The notes: generated from the letters alone by a model not told the origin. Counted from the first letter of the stretch, positions 5,466 through 26,630 are shown. The stretch is DNA of 32,175 nucleotides from an uncultured Thermoplasmatales archaeon (GCA_964572575.1 CAZNGK010000001.1:1-32175), one strand, 5' to 3'. Numbers and translations: made by a program.

Positions 5466-5500
5466 AATACAAAAAAAGTATTTAAAGTTTTTGTTTAAAG
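5466..5500 (-). promoter_or_regulatory. Family-A promoter module, copy A4
   Basis: aatacaaaaaaagtatttaaagtttttgtttaaag. Together with the start of the downstream gene it is near-identical over about 65 bp to 7105-7165. Confidence 0.7.
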
Positions 5501-5566
5501 TTATTAACATACTATAAACTATTGTTTTGTATATATAAAAAATATAAGAGAAGGGAAAGGATCGCA

Positions 5567-7126: not shown

Positions 7127-7161
7127 AATACAAAAAAAGTATTTAAAGTTTTTGTTTAAAA
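7127..7161 (-). promoter_or_regulatory. Family-A promoter module, copy A5
   Basis: aatacaaaaaaagtatttaaagtttttgtttaaaa, TATA about 30 bp upstream of ATG 7112. Confidence 0.7.
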
Positions 7162-7219
7162 TTATTGTTTAAGAATGCCTATCTTTTTAATTTATTCCTC
7201 TATATAGGAATGAAAGAAA

Positions 7220-7708: not shown

Positions 7709-7733
7709 AATACAAAAAAAGTATTTAAGGTTT
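7709..7733 (-). promoter_or_regulatory. Family-A promoter module, copy A6
   Basis: aatacaaaaaaagtatttaaggttt. Confidence 0.65.
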
Positions 7734-7886
7734 AATGCGAAAGTTTACACTCCTTATTGCTCTTGGGCTTTTCTCTGGGGCTTTTGATAGAGGTATTTGT
7801 ATATACAAAACAATATATGAAAAAATGATTTAACAAATTAAACAATAGACAATAAGACAAAATTTATTTACAAATTCTATTGCCAA

Positions 7887-9858: not shown

Positions 9859-9884
9859 TTCCCCAAAAGGGGAAAATTTAAAAA
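9859..9884 (+). promoter_or_regulatory. Family-B module B1: palindrome TTCCCCAAAAGGGGAA fused to the TATA-like AAATTTAAAAA
   Basis: The first T of the palindrome is 48 nt upstream of ATG 9907, and the architecture matches B2-B5. Confidence 0.7.
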
Positions 9885-9906: not shown

Positions 9907-10242
9907 ATGAACATACTTGGGATACTTGAACTGGATGAAAGAAATAGAGTGTATTTCCCATCAATTGTGTTTGATATTCTTGATAAACCAGAGCATTTAA
10001 AAATTGTTGAAAAAATCATTGATGGAAAGAACCAGATAGTTATTGAATCTGAAAATTATGGTGGAAAAACAATTGCTAAAATAAATGTAAATGCCAATAT
10101 GAGGAGAGGAACTATACCAAAAAAGGTTAGAGAAAAGTTATCATTGAATGCTCATAATCCATTTATCATATTACTCAAAAATGATAGAAATGAGATAATG
10201 ATGAAAAGGTTGGATGTTGAAAAAATAGTTGGAGATGATTAA
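9907..10242 (+). CDS. AbrB/SpoVT-like DNA-binding protein (two swapped-hairpin-like repeats)
   Basis: RVYFPSIVFDIL and GTIPKKVREKLSL resemble the AbrB/MazE-type motif. First gene after B1. Confidence 0.55.
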   Translation: MNILGILELDERNRVYFPSIVFDILDKPEHLKIVEKIIDGKNQIVIESENYGGKTIAKINVNANMRRGTIPKKVREKLSLNAHNPFIILLKNDRNEIMMKRLDVEKIVGDD

Positions 10243-11031: not shown

Positions 11032-11475
11032 ATGGGGATAAAAGAACCATTCTGCGTTAATTTCGTAAAGACAAACTGCCCATACTGTAAGATAGGGGAT
11101 AGAATAATAAACCAGGGGTTTTTGAAAAATTATCTCCGATTGAACCACAATTTTACAATAATAAACATAAAGAAATATTATGGTGCAATGAAAATATGGT
11201 GGGATAAGGTATCTCCCAACATGCTTGGAGTTGATAGAACTGCTACGCCTTCATGGGTTTTCTTTGAAAATAAAAGAAGAATGTTTGGAAGACCAAAAAA
11301 AATATTCATATTGTCCAGAAAAAGCACTGGATATAAAATAAGAGATTTAAGAGATCAGGTTCTTGCATTAAAAGACAGCATGGAGGAGTGGTTGTGGGAA
11401 ACATATCCAGAGTATATGGGAATGAAAAGCGAATTAATGCATATAGGAGAGGAGGAGTATATGTATGTCATCTAA
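11032..11475 (+). CDS. glutaredoxin/thioredoxin-fold-like protein with a CPYC motif
   Basis: FVKTNCPYCK is the classic glutaredoxin active-site context. The C-terminal extension is unassigned. Confidence 0.5.
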   Translation: MGIKEPFCVNFVKTNCPYCKIGDRIINQGFLKNYLRLNHNFTIINIKKYYGAMKIWWDKVSPNMLGVDRTATPSWVFFENKRRMFGRPKKIFILSRKSTGYKIRDLRDQVLALKDSMEEWLWETYPEYMGMKSELMHIGEEEYMYVI

Positions 11476-12225: not shown

Positions 12226-12252
12226 TTCCCTAAAAAGGGAAAATTTATATAT
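12226..12252 (+). promoter_or_regulatory. Family-B module B2: TTCCCTAAAAAGGGAA plus TATA AATTTATATAT
   Basis: 47 nt from the first T to ATG 12273, directly upstream of the micro-protein/radical-SAM operon. Confidence 0.7.
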
Positions 12253-12272
12253 GTTGCAGTAATTATTATTTG

Positions 12273-12452
12273 ATGCCGATAACGGTGCAGGATGCGGTTA
12301 CTTTAAAAAACATTCCTAAATCTTTATGTGATTTACTTGGAGGAATACACACAAGAGAGGGAGATTGCATTGCTGTCATAGAATTAAGCGATGAAAATCC
12401 AAACATAGCAAAATTGATAAAATTGGAAAAAAGGAGGGGTCTGCGTGAATGA
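12273..12452 (+). CDS. two-Cys micro-protein paralogue 1 (59 aa), candidate rSAM substrate
   Basis: PKSLCDLLGG...GDCIAV, ends EKRRGLRE, aligns with the next two ORFs. Confidence 0.55.
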   Translation: MPITVQDAVTLKNIPKSLCDLLGGIHTREGDCIAVIELSDENPNIAKLIKLEKRRGLRE

Positions 12453-12633
12453 AAATAAAAAAATAAAGAGAGTATATGTTACAAGATTTAAGGATTTAGA
12501 TCCAACAATCTGTGAGGAAAAACTAAAGGGTAAATTAAATGGCGATGTTTGTGAAGTCAATGTCATTGAATATGAGGATGGAGAAAAGGAGTTTGTTTCA
12601 TCAGATGAAGTAGAGAAAAGGGGGTTGAGATAA
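12445..12633 (+). CDS. two-Cys micro-protein paralogue 2 (62 aa)
   Basis: The GTG start is 5 nt after the SD AAGGAGGGG and overlaps the upstream stop. PTICEEKLKG...GDVCEV, ends EKRGLR. Confidence 0.55.
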   Translation: MNENKKIKRVYVTRFKDLDPTICEEKLKGKLNGDVCEVNVIEYEDGEKEFVSSDEVEKRGLR

Positions 12634-12830
12634 TGTTGAAAAGAAAAGGTGATAGGAAAATAGTTGTGATTGATGGAAATCAGATAAGCCCTACTGTGTG
12701 CGAGGATGTGCTTGAGGGAACTTTTGATAACAAGTCAAATAAGTGCTATGTGGCAAGGGAAAAGATAGATGAAAACAAGTCAATACTTGAGAAATTGGAT
12801 ATTGAGATAATAGAAGGAAATGAAGAATGA
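12633..12830 (+). CDS. two-Cys micro-protein paralogue 3 (65 aa)
   Basis: TAATG overlap, SD AAGGGGG. PTVCEDVLEG...NKCYV. Confidence 0.55.
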   Translation: MLKRKGDRKIVVIDGNQISPTVCEDVLEGTFDNKSNKCYVAREKIDENKSILEKLDIEIIEGNEE

Positions 12831-13831
12831 GCAAGTTACAACTGTTCATCTTCCTAACAAACATATGTAATTTGAGATGTAAGGGATGTCCAGTATTTAA
12901 GGATATACACAGAAGTTTAACATTAAAAGATATAGAAAAAATAGCAACAACATGGGATTACTCAAGAGTTGCACTTCTTGGTGGAGAGCCATATGCATAC
13001 AAAGATTTGAATAAAGTTGTTGATATGTTCAACAAGCCAGTTACAATATACACCAATGGAACTATGTTGAGAGAGGATAACATTATTGAAAATGTTGTAT
13101 ATGCTGTTTCTCTTGATTCTTTAAACCAAAAAATTAATGATACCATAAGAGGTCAGGGCGTTCATAAGAAAGTGATGCATGCTTTGAATACATTGAGAAA
13201 AAATAAGGAGAAAAAGAATATTAAAGAAATCATAATAAGAACAACATATAACTCAAGAAATTATAGCGATATTTTCAATTTAATTGAGTTTGCTGAAAAA
13301 AATGAATTTGGATTGGCATTACATCCAAGAATTGGTTGGGAAGTGCAGGATGAAGGGATATACGCTGGTCTTACCGCAGAGCAACAATTGAATTTGTTTA
13401 GAGAAATTATCAAACATGATAAGATGGTGATCCTAACACCCCATTTTTTCCAGTGGATTGGGAATAAACATTATAGATGTCCTGCTGGAGAATTTAGATT
13501 GGCAATAAGAGAAAACGGAATGGTAAAGCCATGTCAGTGGGGTAGTTATATAATAGGAAGTATAAGAAATCATGAATTTGACTATTTTAGACAGAAAGGA
13601 ATAGAATATAATAGAGAATTTGTTCAAAAGAGGATTCCAAAATCATGCTTATTTTGTGAAAGGGTTATGCAGTGTCATGGAGGATGTTTATTAATAAACG
13701 ATACAGTAAGATGCCCGTTAAGATATAATGGCGGATCATATAATATAAGAAGATTTTATGGAAATAGTGATATAAGTAGATTTAAGGTTGGATTGAAAAG
13801 GTTGGGAAGAATTGGTTTTAGTGGATGTTAG
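12827..13831 (+). CDS. radical SAM enzyme with a C-terminal SPASM domain (peptide-maturase type)
   Basis: CNLRCKGC (Cx3Cx2C) at residues 14-21 and a GGEP motif. Complete 7-Cys SPASM pattern: CPAGEFRLAIRENGMVKPC (Cx12Gx4C), then CLFCERVMQCHGGC (Cx2Cx5Cx3C), then ...RC. ATGA overlap with paralogue 3. Confidence 0.9.
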   Translation: MSKLQLFIFLTNICNLRCKGCPVFKDIHRSLTLKDIEKIATTWDYSRVALLGGEPYAYKDLNKVVDMFNKPVTIYTNGTMLREDNIIENVVYAVSLDSLNQKINDTIRGQGVHKKVMHALNTLRKNKEKKNIKEIIIRTTYNSRNYSDIFNLIEFAEKNEFGLALHPRIGWEVQDEGIYAGLTAEQQLNLFREIIKHDKMVILTPHFFQWIGNKHYRCPAGEFRLAIRENGMVKPCQWGSYIIGSIRNHEFDYFRQKGIEYNREFVQKRIPKSCLFCERVMQCHGGCLLINDTVRCPLRYNGGSYNIRRFYGNSDISRFKVGLKRLGRIGFSGC

Positions 13832-14751: not shown

Positions 14752-14780
14752 ATAATAAAAAATTTCCCTTTTTGGGGAAG
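14752..14780 (-). promoter_or_regulatory. Family-B module B3 (minus strand: TTCCCCAAAAAGGGAA plus ATTTTTTATT)
   Basis: Same palindrome-plus-TATA architecture as the other B copies. Confidence 0.6.
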
Positions 14781-14816: not shown

Positions 14817-15134
14817 ATGCAACCCAAAATCATAAAATTAGAAAAAATAAGGCATACACTGTTACAAAAGGCAAAAAAGTTTTCAGTTAAATGGGATGAT
14901 AAGAATGTAAAGATATTCATAAAAGGTTGTCTTGAAGATGGCGGAGTTCCAATGTTCAAAGATAGATTTGCTGGAGAAAGATTTGAGGTTGATGGAAAAC
15001 CAGCAGTGTTGGGAATCTGTTATGGTGGAAAGGGAAGATGGAAGGATTCACAATGGTTTAAAGATGTTCCAGAAGAAGATATTGATGTTATTGAAAGCAT
15101 GACAGGAGAGTGGAAAGAATTTCTTTCTGAATAA
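14817..15134 (+). CDS. hypothetical protein (105 aa)
   Basis: Intact ORF divergent from 13828-14733. Confidence 0.5.
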   Translation: MQPKIIKLEKIRHTLLQKAKKFSVKWDDKNVKIFIKGCLEDGGVPMFKDRFAGERFEVDGKPAVLGICYGGKGRWKDSQWFKDVPEEDIDVIESMTGEWKEFLSE

Positions 15135-16202: not shown

Positions 16203-16301
16203 TTATTTACAGAATGAGTATCCACATTTTTTACAATAATAACATACTCTACTCTTGTTTCTTTTCTTTGTCATAGTTTTACCACAACTGGGGCATTTCA
16301 T
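16203..16301 (-). CDS. 32-aa zinc-ribbon micro-protein, below the ORF-track cutoff
   Basis: MKCPSCGKT...CYYCKKCG. ATGA overlap with the stop of 16298-16573. Confidence 0.45.
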   Translation of the reverse strand: MKCPSCGKTMTKKRNKSRVCYYCKKCGYSFCK

Positions 16302-16573
16302 CCTATCAATTCCTCAACTTCTTTCTCAAAATTATCACTGTAACCTATAATACATTTCTTTATTTTTTTATCATCAACCTCGCATATGGTTGGCATCATC
16401 GGAGTTTCAATTGAATCAAGTATATCTGGATTCTCATAATTTTTTAGTTCGGAAAAATCTTTAGCAAATTCTATTTCAATTCCTCTTTCTTCAGCAATTT
16501 TTTCAACAATTGGTAGTGCCTTTTTACATGGCTCACAATCTTCGTCGCCTATAAATAATATCTTTTTACCCAT
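16298..16573 (-). CDS. thioredoxin/glutaredoxin-fold redox protein (CEPC active site)
   Basis: 91 aa. FIGDEDCEPCKKALP followed by a cis-Pro-like MMPTI. The ATG is 21 bp downstream of the A7 TATA. Confidence 0.7.
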   Translation of the reverse strand: MGKKILFIGDEDCEPCKKALPIVEKIAEERGIEIEFAKDFSELKNYENPDILDSIETPMMPTICEVDDKKIKKCIIGYSDNFEKEVEELIG

Positions 16574-16579
16574 AAAGTT

Positions 16580-16602
16580 AAATACAATTTTATTATTTAA
16601 AG
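16580..16602 (-). promoter_or_regulatory. Family-A promoter module, copy A7
   Basis: aaatacaattttattatttaaag. Confidence 0.6.
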
Positions 16603-17163
16603 TTGATGATTGAGGTTACATGCAAATACTGTGGTTCTACGAATGTTGTAAAGGCGGGTAAAGTGAAATTAAAGAGTGGAAATAAAACAAGATATTACTG
16701 TAAGGATTGTAAAAAATACTTTACTGTTATGGATAGAAAAATAAAAGATAAAATATTGAATCTGTTGGATGAGGAAAAAACAATAAGTGATCTGAAAGAT
16801 GAAGTTAAAGCACACCACATGACTATAAGAGCATGTTTAAAGGAATTGATAAATGAAGGAAATGTAAAGGTCTATGAAAAGGATGGTAAAAAGTTTTATG
16901 TGAAAAATGATTATAAGAGCAAAAATGAAGTAAAAAATGAAGTAAAGAAGACAAATAATGTTCAATTACAACTTTCAAAAATTGTTACATTTGTAAAAAG
17001 CAAAGGATATGCAACTCTTGATGAAATAAAAGAATTATTGAATATAGAAAATGTTGCACTGGTTAAAAGAATGATATTGTTGCTTGTAAATGAAGGTATT
17101 CTATCAATAAAGGTTAGTGGCTTGATATTTAGAAAGGAATATGTTGTATGGAAGGGAGAGTAA
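16603..17163 (+). CDS. Zn-ribbon plus tandem wHTH DNA-binding protein
   Basis: N-terminal CKYCGS...YYCKDCKKYF, then two wHTH-like segments (TIRACLKELINEGNV, LVKRMILLLVNEGIL). Confidence 0.65.
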   Translation: MMIEVTCKYCGSTNVVKAGKVKLKSGNKTRYYCKDCKKYFTVMDRKIKDKILNLLDEEKTISDLKDEVKAHHMTIRACLKELINEGNVKVYEKDGKKFYVKNDYKSKNEVKNEVKKTNNVQLQLSKIVTFVKSKGYATLDEIKELLNIENVALVKRMILLLVNEGILSIKVSGLIFRKEYVVWKGE

Positions 17164-17215: not shown

Positions 17216-18496
17216 ATGGCATGTGAATATGAACTTATAGAATCCTTTCTTGATAAAATTGTTCAAGGAGATGCAAAAGATATGCTAAAACAAATTCCAG
17301 ATAACTCAATAGATTGCATCATTACTTCACCGCCTTATTGGGGATTGAGAGATTATGGAAAAGAAACAAATACAATATGGGAAGATGGCTGGTATGGGCA
17401 ACTTGGACATGAGCCAACTCTGGATATGTATATTGATCATCTTTTAGAAATTACAAAAGAATTAAAAAGAGTATTAAAACCTACAGGTGTAATGTGGTGG
17501 AATCATGGAGATAGTTATGGTAGATTTGGGGGGCATCATGGTGGTGAAGATAGAAAACATGCTGGAGGAAAGAATTTGTGGGGAACATTACCAAAACAAC
17601 AGATTTCAGTGCCTGAAAAGTGTTTAAATCTTCAAAACTACCGTTTAATCCTTCGCATGATTGACGAACAGGGCTGGATTCTCCGCAACATCATAATTTG
17701 GTATAAACCAAATCATATGCCAAGTAGCGTTAAAGACAGATTCACAAATGCATACGAGCCAGTATTCATGCTTACTAAAAGCAAAAAATATTGGTTTGAT
17801 TTGGATGCAGTAAGAGTGCCACACAAAATAGATAGTATAAAAAGATCAGCAAGGGCGAGAAAATCAAAAAAATTAGATGCAAAGCAATACTCAACATCTT
17901 ATAAAAATGAATATATCGGCTATGAAAATTTATGGGAAAAATTTCAAAGAGGAGAGTTGAGAGGAGTTCATCCTTTTGGCAAAAATCCTGGTGATGTATG
18001 GATAATTACAACAGAACCATTTCCTGATTCTCATTTTGCTGTTTTTCCAACAAAATTGGTAAAGCCAATGATAAAAGCAGGATGCCCCCAATGGGTATGC
18101 AAGAAATGTGGAAGGGCAAGAGAAAGGATTGTAAAAAATCCTGAAAGAGATTATTCACAAGATTTAAATACCAAAGATAAGCATAAATGGAAAATAAAGG
18201 ATGATAAGTTACAAACAACTACACAACTTCATAGGGATGGTGGCGGAGTGTATTATAAAGGTGTTACCGTTGGCTGGACAGATTGCGGATGCGAGGCAGG
18301 ATGGGATGCTGGCATAGTTTTAGATCCATTTTGCGGTGTTGGAACTACATGCTATGTGGCAAGGAAATTAAATCGCCACTACATTGGTATAGAAATAAAT
18401 CCTAAATATGTAGAAATGGCACAAAAAAGGTTGGCAAAAATACCTGCAAGATTAGATAAGTTTTTAAAAATGAAGGGTGATGCACATGCTGAATAA
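17216..18496 (+). CDS. DNA methyltransferase, beta-class, SPPY type (N4-cytosine or N6-adenine) with a Cys-rich insert
   Basis: ITSPPYWG (motif IV), C-terminal LDPFCGVGTT (motif I), and the insert CPQWVCKKCG...CGC. Confidence 0.9.
   Translation: MACEYELIESFLDKIVQGDAKDMLKQIPDNSIDCIITSPPYWGLRDYGKETNTIWEDGWYGQLGHEPTLDMYIDHLLEITKELKRVLKPTGVMWWNHGDSYGRFGGHHGGEDRKHAGGKNLWGTLPKQQISVPEKCLNLQNYRLILRMIDEQGWILRNIIIWYKPNHMPSSVKDRFTNAYEPVFMLTKSKKYWFDLDAVRVPHKIDSIKRSARARKSKKLDAKQYSTSYKNEYIGYENLWEKFQRGELRGVHPFGKNPGDVWIITTEPFPDSHFAVFPTKLVKPMIKAGCPQWVCKKCGRARERIVKNPERDYSQDLNTKDKHKWKIKDDKLQTTTQLHRDGGGVYYKGVTVGWTDCGCEAGWDAGIVLDPFCGVGTTCYVARKLNRHYIGIEINPKYVEMAQKRLAKIPARLDKFLKMKGDAHAE
18317..18407. repeat. 91-bp perfect inverted repeat, copy 2 (partner 1233-1323)
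   Basis: Verified base by base. Identity drops sharply outside the tract. Confidence 0.95.
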
Positions 18497-19547
18497 TGAT
18501 TTTAAGGAAAAAATGAAGATATTCAGGGAATATCTTATTGTAAGAGCAAAAAGTAGTGCTGATACAATAGATAAATACACAAGATTTACAAAAGAATTTT
18601 TAGATTTTGTTAGCAAAAATTATGGTGTAACAAAAATAGTGGAAGTATCGCCAAAACATTTGGTTGAATGGATTAAATATCTAACCAAGAAGGACTATTC
18701 TGGAAACACCATCAATTTGAAAAGATCTGCTGTAATAAAGTTCTTTGATGCACTGTATAATGAAGAACCAGATAATCCAGATTTACAGAATAAAGTAATC
18801 CTTTTCAAAAATATTCATGGAATAGGAAAGGTGGATAGCAACCAGCATGAGCCAATACCAGTAGAATGGTTACCTAAATTAAAAGATGCTTCTCTAACAC
18901 TGGATGAAAAATTTGGATCAACTGAACACTATACCGCATTCATGTTTTTCTTATACACTGGTGGCAGATCACAGTTATATGGTGTCCTTGTGGATGAAAT
19001 TGATTTTGAAAATCACTGGTTAGAAACTTTTGTCAAAAGAGGCAAATACATAAAAATACCATTGCACCCGCACCTTGAGAAAGTAATAAAGTGGCATTTG
19101 AAAAATAGAGATTATGATTCCCCATATCTTTTCAAACATGGTAAATATCCATATGCTGATATTTATATAAATAAAAATAAGAAGGATTTTGAAAAATACC
19201 GTGATGTTATAAAAAATGCTGAAAAGTATAACATACCAAGAAATAAGCAGGAGGAGAAAAGGAACAGGGATTCAAATAGAAAGAATGTGAGCATATTATG
19301 TAACAGAATCAGAAAGGAGGCAGGATTTAATGAATCTCTTTACCCACACAGATTCAGGGAAACATTGCATTATGAATTTGAGGAACTTGGAGTTAGCATA
19401 AATACTGCTATGGCAATTGGTGGATGGAGTAAAGAAGATATGGCATACTATTACAGAAGAACTGGAAAGCATGTTAAAAAAGCACTGAAAGAGTTTGAGA
19501 AGATAGATTTGTTAAATATAAAAGAGGGTGATGAAAATGAATTATGA
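18477..19547 (+). CDS. tyrosine recombinase/integrase (XerC/D-like)
   Basis: N-terminal core-binding (SAM-like) region. Catalytic signature TGGR ... HRFR ... GGW ... YYY. The likely start is ATG 18480 or 18486, after the SD AGGGTGAT. Confidence 0.9.
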   Translation: MMHMLNNDFKEKMKIFREYLIVRAKSSADTIDKYTRFTKEFLDFVSKNYGVTKIVEVSPKHLVEWIKYLTKKDYSGNTINLKRSAVIKFFDALYNEEPDNPDLQNKVILFKNIHGIGKVDSNQHEPIPVEWLPKLKDASLTLDEKFGSTEHYTAFMFFLYTGGRSQLYGVLVDEIDFENHWLETFVKRGKYIKIPLHPHLEKVIKWHLKNRDYDSPYLFKHGKYPYADIYINKNKKDFEKYRDVIKNAEKYNIPRNKQEEKRNRDSNRKNVSILCNRIRKEAGFNESLYPHRFRETLHYEFEELGVSINTAMAIGGWSKEDMAYYYRRTGKHVKKALKEFEKIDLLNIKEGDENEL

Positions 19548-20037
19548 AATAAATAATATTATAACTGGACATTGGGCGTTGCCAAGACCAATTGGAAAAT
19601 ATAAAACACGACATCCAGATACATTATTAGTAAGATTGGAAGCACTTATAGGACCATATAGCATTAAAAAGATATTGCATTTATTTTGTGGTATATCAAA
19701 ATTCCCTAATACAGAGAGAGAGATCAGAATTGATATAAATCCAGAGGTAAAACCAGATTATATTATTGATTTAACTAAAGAAAAACTACCGTTTGAAGAT
19801 AATTCGTTTGATATTGTTTATGCAGATCCACCTTACTATGATTTCCCGCCTTACTCCTTTGTTGATGAAGCAGTTAGAGTTCTTAAACCATATGGATATT
19901 TAGCAATACTTCATCCATTAGTTTATAAAACACCAAAACAAACAAAAAGATGGGCGGTTATATCAATAGGCACTGGTCCAAATATGAGATTGCGATGTTT
20001 AAATATATTTAGAAAGATTAAAGTTGATGAACAATAA
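19528..20037 (+). CDS. small SAM-dependent methyltransferase with a DPPY motif (third MTase)
   Basis: LHLFCGIS (motif I-like) followed by DIVYADPPYY (motif IV). The likely start is ATG 19531 or 19537, after the SD AGGGTGAT. Confidence 0.6.
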   Translation: MMKMNYEINNIITGHWALPRPIGKYKTRHPDTLLVRLEALIGPYSIKKILHLFCGISKFPNTEREIRIDINPEVKPDYIIDLTKEKLPFEDNSFDIVYADPPYYDFPPYSFVDEAVRVLKPYGYLAILHPLVYKTPKQTKRWAVISIGTGPNMRLRCLNIFRKIKVDEQ

Positions 20038-20242
20038 AAGAATGGCATATACATTTGCTAAATATGAACATAAATTTGAAAATTTAACAAATATTGCTAT
20101 AATCATAACAACAATTGTTGCATATTTTATTAAAATAAATATAATTGTTTTCTCACTAATTATAATCATTGCAGTAATTCATACAGTAGCAAGAATATGC
20201 CATATTTTTGAGAAGCATTACTTTAACAACTCAAGAAAATAG
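20024..20242 (+). CDS. small membrane protein (72 aa)
   Basis: One long hydrophobic stretch. The stop codon overlaps the tRNA 3' end by 2 nt. Confidence 0.45.
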   Translation: MMNNKRMAYTFAKYEHKFENLTNIAIIITTIVAYFIKINIIVFSLIIIIAVIHTVARICHIFEKHYFNNSRK

Positions 20243-20314
20243 CGGGGAGAGGATTTGAACCTCTGATCTTCGGGATATGAACCCGATGGGTTATCCTGAC
20301 TACCCTACCCCGCT
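20241..20314 (-). tRNA. tRNA-Met (anticodon CAT), initiator-like
   Basis: Hand-folded cloverleaf: AGCGGGG/CCCCGCT acceptor with A1:U72, D stem GGGT/ACCC, anticodon stem TCGGG/CCCGA (three G:C pairs next to the loop), loop TTCATAT, T arm AGAGG-TTCAAAT-CCTCT. 74 nt, with no encoded CCA. Confidence 0.9.
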
Positions 20315-20672
20315 ACTTCAATTCATCTAAAGTTAAAATGCCAAGATCCATTAAAAGTTTTACCATGTTTATAGTTTGATTTTTTATATCCTCAAGAACT
20401 TCAGAATGATCTTCTGAATTTGGCAACTCTTTAAAAGGAATGCACTCATTATCAATCACTTCAAACCCACCACCAGGGCGTTTTCTGTATGGCATACCAT
20501 CTGGCTTTTTCCCGCCCCTTATCTTCCTTACTTGTATTACAATATCATCCTCATCTACTGGATTGTTCCTTCTGAATCTGTTCAACCATGCTCTTTCAAC
20601 CCAGTTCCATCCACAGGTGGGGCAAACCACATAATTTTCCCTAACATCTCCATCTTCACCAACATACGACAT
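20313..20672 (-). CDS. hypothetical protein (119 aa), basic Gly-rich centre
   Basis: Intact ORF. Its stop codon overlaps the tRNA 5' end by 2 nt. Confidence 0.55.
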   Translation of the reverse strand: MSYVGEDGDVRENYVVCPTCGWNWVERAWLNRFRRNNPVDEDDIVIQVRKIRGGKKPDGMPYRKRPGGGFEVIDNECIPFKELPNSEDHSEVLEDIKNQTINMVKLLMDLGILTLDELK

Positions 20673-20681
20673 TATATCACC

Positions 20682-22175
20682 TTATGGCTTATATGGGACA
20701 TCAGGACCTTTTTTGATGATTTCATCTAATACTCCTTTTATTTTATTTCTGAATATTGCCACAACTATTAAAATTATTCCTATCGCTGACAATATTATAT
20801 ACCCATAACCACCATGAGATGATGAATAAACTGTAACCTTCTTTTCATATGATGTTGCATAATTGTAATCCACAACTATTGAATATGTTCCTGCACTTGT
20901 TGGTGTCCAACTTCCAATGCCATTAATTAAATTGATGAATCCATATGGCATTCCATTTCTATAAATATCCACTCTATTTATATCAGTTATATACTCCTGT
21001 GTATTTTCATCAATCAATTCAACTTGATATGCCCTGTCTTCCTTAACAGAACCATAAATGAAATTGCCATTGCTATCTTTCATAATTATTCTTGGGTTGT
21101 AATATGCCTCAAAAGTTTTCTCCTCCTTTACACCATCTGCTTTTACTTCTATCTCGTATTTGCCTGCCACATCTGGAGTAAATTCTATTTCTCCATTATC
21201 AAAGTCATCGCTTATTGCCCTGCCATCTGGCGTAGATATTTCATATTCTCCTGCTTCTGGAGTAACTTTTATAACCATCCTATCCCCAACATTAACTTTT
21301 TTATCAACATCTATTGTTATTTTAGATGTTGAAACATTAACTGATTTTGTAACCGTTTCTCCTTTATACTGCCCAATCAATATCCATTTGCCAGAAGCAT
21401 CAAATGTAATACTCACCTGACCATTATCGTTTGTATCCTTCAAAACTTGCGAGCCATCTGGTTTAACTACTATTAAACTTCCCTTAACATTGTTATTTCC
21501 AAGTTTTAATGTGGCAATTTTTGTATCCCCTTTCTTAATATTCTTATCAATGCTTATATCCAGTTTTCCTTCTTGTGTGCTTGCCGATTTAGAAATATTG
21601 AAAAAGTGATAGGTTATTTCTCCATCACTCCACACAAGCAATAACATTGCACTTCCATAATCATCTTTGCTTAAATTTATAAATGTAAATGGAACTCCTT
21701 CTGCAATATTTATGGAATACATTCTTCCAGTTTCACTGCATGATATAAACCCTGTTGCACTCATTTTTGATGGAGAAACTATTGATATTGTAGATCCCGC
21801 TTTTGGATTTGGTGGAAATATCAAAACAGATTTTTTGGATGTTATATACACCTGCTGGGTTATTATGTTGCCATTGTATTCATAATTTATCAATCCGTTT
21901 TCACTACCACTTATCGTAAATCCTATTGTTATTGTTTTTCTTTCATAGGGTTTAAGCACATATGTTGTCTTGTATAAAAAGTAGTTCTTTATGCCTACAA
22001 CACTGATATTTACAATTGTTTGTTCATCCCTATCGTTGTATATCTCAACACTCTGCATAACAAATTTTCCGTTCTCTCCCTCAAGTGTTATTATTGGCGG
22101 ATTAATCTCTATTGCATATACACTGTTCATTATAATCACAAAAACTGCCAGCAACATCACTATTTTTGCCTTCAT
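20682..22175 (-). CDS. secreted, C-terminally anchored beta-rich surface protein (497 aa)
   Basis: N-terminal signal-like MKAKIVMLLAVFVIIMNSVYA, Ig-like beta-rich repeats, and a C-terminal TM (YIILSAIGIILIVVAIF) with a basic tail. B4 promoter upstream. Confidence 0.7.
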   Translation of the reverse strand: MKAKIVMLLAVFVIIMNSVYAIEINPPIITLEGENGKFVMQSVEIYNDRDEQTIVNISVVGIKNYFLYKTTYVLKPYERKTITIGFTISGSENGLINYEYNGNIITQQVYITSKKSVLIFPPNPKAGSTISIVSPSKMSATGFISCSETGRMYSINIAEGVPFTFINLSKDDYGSAMLLLVWSDGEITYHFFNISKSASTQEGKLDISIDKNIKKGDTKIATLKLGNNNVKGSLIVVKPDGSQVLKDTNDNGQVSITFDASGKWILIGQYKGETVTKSVNVSTSKITIDVDKKVNVGDRMVIKVTPEAGEYEISTPDGRAISDDFDNGEIEFTPDVAGKYEIEVKADGVKEEKTFEAYYNPRIIMKDSNGNFIYGSVKEDRAYQVELIDENTQEYITDINRVDIYRNGMPYGFINLINGIGSWTPTSAGTYSIVVDYNYATSYEKKVTVYSSSHGGYGYIILSAIGIILIVVAIFRNKIKGVLDEIIKKGPDVPYKP

Positions 22176-22195: not shown

Positions 22196-22222
22196 GTTTA
22201 TAAATTTTCCCCTTTTGGGGAA
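22196..22222 (-). promoter_or_regulatory. Family-B module B4 (minus strand: TTCCCCAAAAGGGGAA plus AATTTATAAAC)
   Basis: 47 nt from the first T (22222) to ATG 22175. Confidence 0.7.
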
Positions 22223-26154: not shown

Positions 26155-26180
26155 GTATGAAAATAAAATGATAAGTTGGA

Positions 26181-26205
26181 TATAAATTTTCCCCTTTTAG
26201 GGCAA
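26181..26205 (-). promoter_or_regulatory. Family-B module B5 (minus strand: TTGCCCTAAAAGGGGAA plus AATTTATA)
   Basis: Degenerate left arm. 51 nt from the first T to ATG 26154. Confidence 0.6.
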
Positions 26206-26243: not shown

Positions 26244-26630
26244 TTGATGCCGAAAAATAAATTGGATTGGGGAGATGTGGTGGCAATAATATTCTTTATA
26301 ATAGGAACGGTATCGGTATTGGGAGGACTTCTGTTTTCCACAGTGTGGGCAGAGTTATCAAGATTCCTTGAAAGTGCAGGATTCATGATAACACTGTTTA
26401 ACTTTGATACAACAGTGGCAACAATGACATTATTTGGATTTGGCATAATGTATATGCTAACTGGCTATCTGGTTGCAGAGAGATACAAGGAAGGCAAGGT
26501 GCTTGCATTTATATTTGGCATAATATTTCTATTTGCATTTCCAATAGGAACAGTGATTGGACTAATAACACTATACACGATACTTGCCAGCGATGTGAAG
26601 AACGAATTTACAAAAGAAATAGAACTGTGA
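26244..26630 (+). CDS. membrane protein (about 127 aa, 4 TM)
   Basis: Hydrophobic helices. Track start is TTG 26244, with an ATG at 26247. Confidence 0.6.
   Translation: MMPKNKLDWGDVVAIIFFIIGTVSVLGGLLFSTVWAELSRFLESAGFMITLFNFDTTVATMTLFGFGIMYMLTGYLVAERYKEGKVLAFIFGIIFLFAFPIGTVIGLITLYTILASDVKNEFTKEIEL

Follow-up and report, generated by a model that had tools for sequence, protein, structure and literature searches.

Two-cysteine micro-proteins coupled to a radical-SAM/SPASM enzyme in an archaeal mobile-element backbone: a candidate system for maturing small folded proteins

Sactipeptide and ranthipeptide systems (SkfB/SkfA, AlbA/SboA, thuricin CD, SCIFF, PapB) pair a radical S-adenosylmethionine (SAM) enzyme that carries auxiliary clusters with multiplied small cysteine-containing products encoded beside it. 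SPASM-domain enzymes that act on proteins also exist, among them anSME and QhpD (PMC10114670), and QhpD forms intra-protein thioethers between Cys and Asp/Glu in QhpC, the small gamma subunit of quinohemoprotein amine dehydrogenase (PMC10114670). Here we analysed a stretch of 32,175 nucleotides (nt) from an uncultured Thermoplasmatales archaeon (GCA_964572575.1 CAZNGK010000001.1:1-32175), called the window below, in which three open reading frames (ORFs) for micro-proteins with two cysteines each, A, B and C, run into the gene of a radical-SAM/SPASM enzyme:

12226-12241 and 12245-12252, + strand: palindrome TTCCCTAAAAAGGGAA and TATA-like box TTTATATA, read from the sequence; the stem was also flagged by a terminator-type scan
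12273-12452, + strand: ORF A, 59 residues, Cys19 and Cys32, tail EKRRGLRE
12445-12633, + strand: ORF B, 62 residues, Cys23 and Cys36, tail EKRGLR
12633-12830, + strand: ORF C, 65 residues, Cys23 and Cys38, acidic tail
12827-13831, + strand: radical-SAM/SPASM enzyme, 334 residues

The explanation that we tentatively favour among those considered is that the adjacent enzyme, which carries no recognition element, modifies the folded two-cysteine proteins A, B and C after translation; we infer the role of the micro-proteins as substrates, the cysteines as the site and the chemistry itself. An initial annotation of this DNA had proposed a cassette of the type that makes peptides synthesized on the ribosome and modified after translation (RiPPs). 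The conserved coupling to a SPASM enzyme speaks for that proposal, whereas a leader/core organisation, a RiPP recognition element (RRE), a protease, an exporter and a family match are all lacking. Since the wider micro-protein family occurs away from the enzyme, the genes reside in an element backbone, the structural models are folded and no maturase model comes near its cut-off, “RiPP-type” is too specific, and the claim is defensible if put as radical-SAM maturation of small folded proteins.

The ORF calls and stop/start overlaps were re-read from the sequence and agree with the initial annotation, as does the spacing between the cysteines (12 residues in A, 12 in B and 14 in C), and orthologues were found in four further lineages. 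B starts with a GTG at 12445, 8 nt inside the 3′ end of A and about 7 nt downstream of a GGAGG, and its orthologues start with MNE... or VSE.... The ATG of C (12633) shares one base with the TAA stop of B (TAATG), and the start of the enzyme lies in an ATGA overlap with the stop of C. Strong Shine-Dalgarno sequences had been claimed for all three micro-protein ORFs; purine-rich ribosome-binding sites indeed precede B, C and the enzyme, whereas A has no Shine-Dalgarno sequence. Two of the proteins had been said to end in EKRGLR; B ends in EKRGLR and A in EKRRGLRE. Because A lacks a Shine-Dalgarno sequence and the TTTATATA box lies about 21 nt upstream of its ATG, its transcript is probably leaderless, and the palindrome with the TATA-like box likely represents the operator plus promoter of a leaderless A-B-C-enzyme transcript. 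A similar palindrome and A/T box lie upstream of A in one of the related loci (L007; loci of relatives are given as L numbers throughout).

The order A-B-C-enzyme is kept in five lineages (the window clade, L007/8, L009, L011/12 and L016-21), with stops and starts overlapping or nearly abutting, while the identity of the enzyme falls from 98% to 37%. Orthologues of A are present in L007, L009, L011 and L016. An identical C protein occurs on 21 metagenomic contigs, and the enzyme always comes next wherever the contig extends that far. L004 (enzyme identity 64%) opens with the end of a C-like ORF, directly before the enzyme gene. The most telling case for a functional link is the independent arrangement in L013. 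The enzyme of L013/L014 is 31% identical to that of the window, and the other genes of the module were not found there by BLAST. In L013, a lone micro-protein, P0060 (MSKVNIGKMPPSACQELSGFINEESNCMVDD...KGVKLR), is encoded 440 nt downstream of the clade enzyme, and a second radical-SAM/SPASM enzyme of a different lineage (Pfam SPASM 1.6e-9) starts right after the P0060 stop. A seemingly natural variant without A, B and C, L010, was discarded: identity to L009 begins abruptly inside the enzyme N-terminus after an unrelated high-GC gene (L010 1-610), and this contig of a metagenome-assembled genome (MAG) is probably an assembly chimera and was not used.

On the evidence of their sequences, A, B and C are genuine genes and diverged paralogues. 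The claim that the three ORFs align with each other is weak in single-sequence comparison (pairwise BLASTP E = 2e-4, 0.015 and 0.029); the paralogy is upheld by the orthologue sets, their profile comparisons and their invariant columns. Profile-profile comparison of the orthologue sets with hhalign gave E-values of 5.6e-5 for B-C, 9e-4 for A-B and 0.09 for A-C, the aligned segment being C...G...C in every case. The first cysteine, a glycine 5-6 residues on and the second cysteine are the only invariant columns in alignments of 13, 21 and 32 members, the common core can be written as C-x4-5-G-x6-8-C, and one hidden Markov model recovers the A, B and C types. Around the second cysteine, A shows a local hot spot of variation. 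The A proteins of L002, L003 and L025, which are near-identical contigs with neighbouring genes at 97-100% identity, are only 85% identical to that of the window, and the differences cluster there (REGDCIAVIE versus RDEGCIVAVE).

The initial annotation had described the micro-proteins as foldable rather than leader/core-like, and this view holds. They are 57-95 residues long, highly charged and, in orthologue alignments, conserved over their full length. An AlphaFold2 (AF2) model of A, built with the family alignment, has a pLDDT (predicted local distance difference test) of 83 and shows a small beta/alpha domain, compact over residues ~4-49: a strand (4-11), a short helix (16-21) with Cys19, a long strand (32-39) that starts from Cys32, and a further strand (46-49). 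It is followed by a disordered tail (50-59) that carries KRRGLRE. The AF2 model of C (pLDDT 73) has the order beta-alpha-beta-beta-alpha-alpha-beta and is compact over residues ~10-62. The micro-proteins are thus predicted to be small folded domains and not leader/core peptides. Foldseek searches of the A and C models against the PDB and BFVD returned nothing significant (best E 0.06-1.2). The profile searches for a known family that had been proposed earlier came back empty, without a match in Pfam scans, in an NCBIfam scan of A, B and C, or in a sequence-profile search of the PDB.

A separate set of longer proteins (86-149 residues) has a micro-protein-like two-cysteine N-terminus, for example MATVVYNDETKKIDAESCRELGGIFEEETKKC..., and their sequences indicate a fourth paralogue type and possible domain fusions:

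L016 6685-6945, - strand: longer protein with two-cysteine N-terminus
L011 2035-2328, - strand: longer protein with two-cysteine N-terminus
L016 18174-18548, + strand: longer protein with two-cysteine N-terminus
L016 3073-3522, + strand: longer protein with two-cysteine N-terminus

The enzyme contains exactly 11 cysteines (3 + 7 + 1). Three form the Cx3Cx2C motif (C14/C18/C21), seven the SPASM signature (C218-x12-G231-x4-C236, C274-x2-C277-x5-C283-x3-C287 and C296), and GGEP lies at residues 52-55 (LGGEP at 51-55). All these motifs had been read correctly in the initial annotation and are conserved: in an alignment of 12 homologues (26-65% identity) the seven SPASM cysteines, C14, C18 and LGGEP are invariant; one homologue, P0013, has another residue in place of C21, which the other 11 retain. 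The eleventh cysteine is the last residue, Cys334 (codon 13829-13831). It is invariant in the 12 homologues as well, within terminal sequences such as GFSGC, LVGC, VIVC and VLVC, and an intein-bearing homologue in L032 also ends in Cys. We know of no invariant C-terminal cysteine in other SPASM enzymes, including the sactipeptide and ranthipeptide families. By analogy with anSME, Cys334 may be the eighth ligand with which both auxiliary clusters would be fully ligated; in anSME, eight cysteines serve as ligands of two such clusters (PMC10114670), and the present enzyme has 7+1 cysteines outside the SAM cluster.

Domain models place the enzyme clearly among radical-SAM proteins (PF04055, E = 4.8e-14, 53.3 bits against a cut-off of 29.5). 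For the SPASM domain, TIGR04085 lies above its cut-off (29.3 bits against 27) and PF13186 just under (19.4 against 21.5), and the homologues P0003 and P0005 carry PF13186 in a precomputed table. In the NCBIfam search that had been recommended for assigning the enzyme, no curated family cut-off was reached. Among the 25 best of 47 matches listed, TIGR04317 (54 bits, cut-off 380) and TIGR04084 (53 bits, cut-off 225) scored highest. Sactipeptide and ranthipeptide maturases are among these weak best matches. None of the equivalog models for such maturases, which include SCIFF (TIGR03974), reached its cut-off, and the peptide maturases StsB (NF045574, 41.9 bits against 625), SkfB (TIGR04403, 31.9 against 300) and PapB (NF047865, 32.1 against 340) stayed below cut-off; with PqqE, these models score 30-42 bits against cut-offs of 300-625. 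By sequence, the sactisynthase SkfB comes closest among solved structures (6efn, E = 1.2e-5). As had been noted before, the enzyme has no N-terminal RRE-like extension: the SAM-cluster motif begins at residue 14, which leaves no room for an RRE/PqqD-like domain, and Pfam gave no PqqD-type match across the eight genes between 10229 and 14790 (CC266, Trx147, p251, A, B, C, the enzyme and m320). Prokaryotic viperin (pVip) was considered and rejected, because the C-terminal half of the enzyme is a SPASM domain; the PADLOC match (54 bits) covers only residues 8-151, and NF038283 scores 43 against 180.

The enzyme clade is small, with only 13 clusters at E <= 1e-20 among 5.8 billion proteins. The clade enzyme of L032 (6451-9030) carries a LAGLIDADG-type intein, inserted where the invariant Ser95 (window numbering) would lie; such an insertion suggests that the element depends on the enzyme and is expected in a gene whose loss is not tolerated. 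An RRXRR-domain gene (PF14239) lies directly upstream of this intein-bearing enzyme.

Compared with sactipeptide and ranthipeptide systems, the locus lacks an N-terminal RRE, a leader/core organisation, a protease and an exporter, the enzyme scores 10-15 times below the family cut-offs and has an invariant C-terminal cysteine, and the partners are predicted to be folded. These differences make a conventional secreted RiPP or bacteriocin, with leader-core precursors that are cleaved and exported, a far-fetched explanation, even though multiplied precursor-like genes lie beside a SPASM enzyme and sactipeptide and ranthipeptide maturases appear among the weak best hits. The module contains no recognition element, protease or transporter and is itself mobile-element backbone; its small proteins are predicted to be folded, highly charged, 57-95 residues long and conserved over their full length, and the maturase models are far below their cut-offs (42 against 625 for StsB, 32 against 340 for PapB). 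The absence of an adjacent protease or exporter, already stated in the initial annotation, was confirmed in domain scans, which showed no protease or transporter domain in the window ORFs that they covered.

QhpD/QhpC provides the best functional analogy for a folded partner of about 60 residues with two cysteines and an enzyme without a recognition domain: there, too, a SPASM enzyme acts on a small protein that has no leader/core organisation, retains a structural role and offers reactive cysteines (PMC10114670). However, no specific sequence relationship to QhpD is detectable, with no QhpD model among the 25 best of the 47 NCBIfam hits, and the partners of the qhp operon (dehydrogenase subunits, protease, flavoprotein) were not found in the window. 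Unlike QhpC, the micro-proteins have only two cysteines and no conserved acidic acceptor beyond the E/D that follows the first cysteine, a residue present in types B and C only, and the context is an archaeal mobile element here and bacterial metabolism in the case of qhp. The likeness to anSME lies in a compact enzyme without a recognition domain and in a cysteine that is modified in a full-length protein (PMC10114670). In contrast, the anSME target C/S-x-P/A-x-R is absent from all 32 micro-proteins, no sulfatase is encoded nearby, and the anSME model TIGR03942 is absent from the 25 best of the 47 matches listed for the window enzyme and scores 38.4 bits against 349 for the L016 orthologue. 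Since these defining models and motifs were tested and not found, the enzyme is not a member of the QhpD or anSME families. TIGR04084 (AF0577) and TIGR04317 (tungsten-cofactor oxidoreductase maturase) describe orphan archaeal and bacterial SPASM enzymes of similar length (~347-349 residues), also without an N-terminal extension; however, their own substrates are different or not established and they have no associated two-cysteine micro-proteins, and with scores far under the cut-offs of 225 and 380 the window enzyme belongs to neither.

Local BLAST of the window proteins against all fetched loci defines a shared backbone of about 10 genes, which runs from an AbrB/SpoVT-like gene through an envelope-type gene and includes A, B, C, the enzyme and several regulators. 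Judged by this shared gene content, the cassette is part of the conserved element backbone and not a cargo island. The genes around it are:

9907-10242, + strand: AbrB/SpoVT-like protein, 111 residues, first gene of an eight-gene module; resemblance by eye; conserved in L007, L009 and L011
10229-11029, + strand: coiled-coil protein, ~261-266 residues; coiled-coil Pfam noise only; conserved in L007, L009, L011 and L016
11032-11475, + strand: thioredoxin-fold-like protein, 147 residues, CPYC/CPVC; Thioredoxin_2 E = 0.0023, below cut-off; CPxC kept in L007, L009, L011 and L033
11465-12220, + strand: 251-residue protein, the most widely conserved module gene; homologues in L007, L009, L011, L015, L016 and L032
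13828-14790, - strand: 320-residue protein, convergent with the enzyme, backbone gene; conserved in L004, L007, L009 and weakly in L016; no Pfam match
14817-15134: 105-residue protein, backbone gene
16298-16573, - strand: second thioredoxin/glutaredoxin-like protein, 91 residues, CEPC; Thioredoxin E = 0.0029, below cut-off
18477-19547: tyrosine integrase, backbone gene
20682-22175, - strand: 497-residue envelope/surface-type protein with signal peptide, Ig-like repeats and C-terminal membrane anchor

Several observations weigh against a modification of the micro-proteins by their neighbour. Their folds, as predicted, differ from the unfolded peptides that most characterised sacti- and ranthipeptide synthases modify; no acceptor residue outside the C, G and C positions is invariant across 32 members; and no curated peptide-maturase model comes near its cut-off. 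Small cysteine-rich, zinc-ribbon-like ORFs lie at the enzyme stop or a few nt from it in L004 (1105-1269, 54 residues) and L013 (2754-2948, 64 residues) and could be alternative candidate partners or substrates. As all the genes concerned belong to the backbone, common descent by itself could preserve much of the synteny. Moreover, an exhaustive profile search of 1.84 billion representatives returned 50 proteins at E <= 1e-3; about 45 of these represent further clusters (50% identity) and are two-cysteine proteins of 58-80 residues with the consensus ...v.E.i..l.niDp.tC.e.lkG..de.G.C.vr....d.P.... Genomic context was seen for four of these wider-family lineages (L015, L030, L032 and L033/34), in all of which the micro-protein is single-copy and not next to the enzyme. 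In L032 and L033/L034 it lies 15-35 nt upstream of a homologue of the 497-residue protein, and in L015 directly upstream of such an envelope-type homologue, with overlapping gene calls. The clade enzyme is 1-4 kb away and in another transcription unit in L015 and L032, and no family enzyme was found in the ~24 kb around the micro-protein in L033 and L034 (the other 17 kb of the contig lie outside this view), where homologues of the CPVC protein and the 251-residue protein are present. In L030, a 499-residue ORF with a similar C-terminal anchor lies beside the micro-protein on the opposite strand, with no BLAST match to the window protein recorded. Type A scores best against the wider-family profile and B and C much lower, which suggests that the ancestral state was one gene, paired with that for the envelope-type protein; in the window clade, these sequence comparisons suggest, the ancestral gene moved next to the enzyme and was then triplicated. 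Frequent occurrence of the micro-proteins without a radical-SAM gene had been named in the initial annotation as evidence that would speak against its proposal; such occurrence is found in part, in the wider family beside the envelope-type gene, while the coupling in five lineages stands.

These data also bear on the main rival explanation, which we consider possible rather than probable and only slightly less likely than modification by the enzyme: the micro-proteins could be accessory or structural partners of the ~500-residue envelope protein, with the cysteine pair as a disulfide or metal site serviced by the thioredoxin-fold proteins, while the enzyme has another substrate (protein, cofactor, lipid or nucleic acid) and came to lie next to them by backbone rearrangement. 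Single-copy members that adjoin the envelope-type gene (L032, L033/34, L015) or lie beside a similar ORF on the opposite strand (L030) fit this explanation, as does the ancestral appearance of type A compared with the more diverged B and C; in the window itself, however, the envelope-type gene is preceded by an unrelated 93-residue ORF. The compact domains of the AF2 models, the thioredoxin/glutaredoxin-like gene near the micro-proteins (11032-11475, with a divergent one in L032) and the palindrome shared by the A-B-C-enzyme operon and the envelope-type gene agree with it too. On the other hand, the tight stop/start coupling to the enzyme persists down to 37% enzyme identity, L013 independently sets a micro-protein between two SPASM enzymes, and the window proteome has no bias towards even cysteine counts (16 proteins with an even and 30 with an odd count). 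The latter weakens a generic “hyperthermophile disulfide” reading at the level of the proteome; for these particular micro-proteins, a disulfide or metal site is possible.

Alternatively, the micro-proteins could assist the enzyme, either as small iron-sulfur or metal electron carriers, with a cluster bridging two-cysteine protomers, or as substrate-presenting chaperones in the role of an RRE or PqqD. Radical-SAM enzymes need a reductant, the enzyme itself has no recognition domain, and translational coupling suggests stoichiometric co-production of proteins with exactly two invariant cysteines each and several paralogues per element. However, we regard such helpers as unlikely: Foldseek found no significant match to ferredoxins, rubredoxins or PqqD-type domains (best E 0.06-1.2), no sequence feature of a cluster-binding motif was recognised, and single-copy members occur at a distance from any radical-SAM gene.

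If, as we tentatively favour, the enzyme modifies A, B and C, the cassette would be transcribed from the palindrome/TATA promoter, in some relatives by read-through from the upstream four genes, and the four ORFs would be translated as a coupled unit. SAM would be cleaved at the Cx3Cx2C cluster and a hydrogen atom abstracted from the micro-protein. The two SPASM auxiliary clusters would then help the enzyme to resolve the radical, most plausibly on or together with the two invariant cysteines, and the outcome would be a thioether-type cross-link or another cysteine-centred change. The CPxC thioredoxin-fold protein would maintain the redox state that the cysteines need, and the products would stay small intracellular or particle-associated proteins of the element, without cleavage or export. 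A bolder version, to which we give little credence, is that virus-like archaeal integrative elements harden or activate particle-associated folded two-cysteine proteins, partners of the envelope protein, by radical cross-links or other cysteine-centred modifications that their own radical-SAM/SPASM enzyme installs, with the C-terminal cysteine of the enzyme as an extra cluster ligand; the micro-proteins would then provide a new substrate fold.

Relatives of the element were scarce. A 12-kb megablast query returned nothing from collections of phages and plasmids, tblastn of the enzyme and the 497-residue protein against phage and archaeal-virus records returned generic radical-SAM cores or nothing, and IMG/VR scans with the enzyme and with the micro-protein alignment found no relatives. 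Searching the GTDB species representatives with the enzyme alignment yielded only distant bacterial radical-SAM enzymes (24-27% identity), and a metagenome scan with the micro-protein alignment yielded two short contigs only. Taxonomic hints among the relatives come from two MAGs that bear the NCBI names Hydrothermarchaeota and Aenigmatarchaeota. Within the collection of papers searched, we found no description of the enzyme clade, the micro-protein family or the element family, and none of the three has an assignment in Pfam, NCBIfam, PHROG or the PDB.

SPASM enzymes encoded together with a small substrate are known; new are the folded candidate substrate of orphan fold, the lack of a recognition element, the terminal cysteine of the enzyme and the residence in a mobile-element backbone. 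If the coupling is functional, the substrate range of SPASM enzymes would widen from peptides towards small folded proteins, in this case a new family of two-cysteine micro-proteins handled without a recognition element, and the four genes form an expression set in which this can be tested directly. No radical-SAM/SPASM system for protein maturation encoded in an archaeal mobile-element or virus backbone is known to us so far, and a functional coupling here would provide the first. Whatever the mechanism, the analysis delimits a family of elements, not described before, that share about 10 backbone genes, a micro-protein family of about 50 clusters at 50% identity (about 60 when 90%-identity clusters are included), and an enzyme clade with an invariant terminal cysteine.

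Among the genes upstream of the cassette, the 111-residue protein (9907-10242) has no Pfam match, so that its AbrB/SpoVT assignment is one of sequence resemblance; in L013 and L015, small genes divergent from the enzyme likewise resemble AbrB by eye. The 251-residue protein probably has a winged-helix fold, with a faint Penicillinase_R (BlaI-type) match in its homologues. In L011 and L016 its stop lies 2-6 nt from the start of A, and in the absence of a gap A-B-C-enzyme continue one eight-gene operon there. The gene at 11032-11475 had been called glutaredoxin-like on account of its CPYC motif; the CPxC is conserved in its orthologues, whereas the domain match is weak and below cut-off. Further glutaredoxin-like genes were found in L004 (4191-4430, - strand) and in L032 (9644-9895, - strand), the latter divergent from the micro-protein.

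Homologues of the 497-residue protein are encoded in L015 (57-1625, - strand), L032 (10266-11819) and L033 (4490-6055), and also in L016 and L034, and this protein of ~500 residues may serve a pleomorphic virus-like particle as its spike or envelope protein; deposited phage and archaeal-virus genomes hold no match to it. Genes for a capsid, a portal or a terminase were not detected among the window ORFs. Other genes of the window encode two DNA methyltransferases of the N6/N4 type, a protein with PKD repeats and a tRNA-Met. The tRNA-Met (20239-20315, - strand) lies just downstream of the integrase block (18477-20037) with backbone genes on both sides, and is either element-borne or an attachment site within a composite region.

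The palindrome upstream of A had been taken for the operon's own promoter element. However, the pattern TCCC-N5-RGGGA occurs at four sites (9860, 12227, 14765 and 22208) against 0.27 expected, with a one-mismatch copy near 26190, and as there are four exact copies across the element it is not private to the A-B-C-enzyme operon. The copies, of the form TTCCC[CT]-AAAA(A)-[AG]GGGAA and each next to an A/T-rich TATA-like box, are:

9860-9873: before the first operon of the module
12227-12240: before A-B-C-enzyme
14765-14778: before the divergent pair of the 320-residue and 105-residue proteins
22208-22221: before the envelope-type gene
26176-26202: near-copy, before the operon that starts at 26244

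Together they look like the operator of one regulon, and the AbrB-like or the winged-helix protein of the module is a candidate for the factor that binds it. A second promoter-like repeat of about 40 nt, AATACAA-[A/T]n-GTATTTAARG-TTTTGTTTAA, marks genes of the left arm and precedes a DNA methyltransferase, a 452-residue protein, helix-turn-helix proteins and the gene at 16603:

1-42: second promoter-like motif
1138-1179: second promoter-like motif
1957-1998: second promoter-like motif
5468-5509: second promoter-like motif
7129-7170: second promoter-like motif
7709-7738: second promoter-like motif
16583-16624: second promoter-like motif

The presence of two motif classes suggests that the genes of the element are organised into two temporal or regulatory sets.

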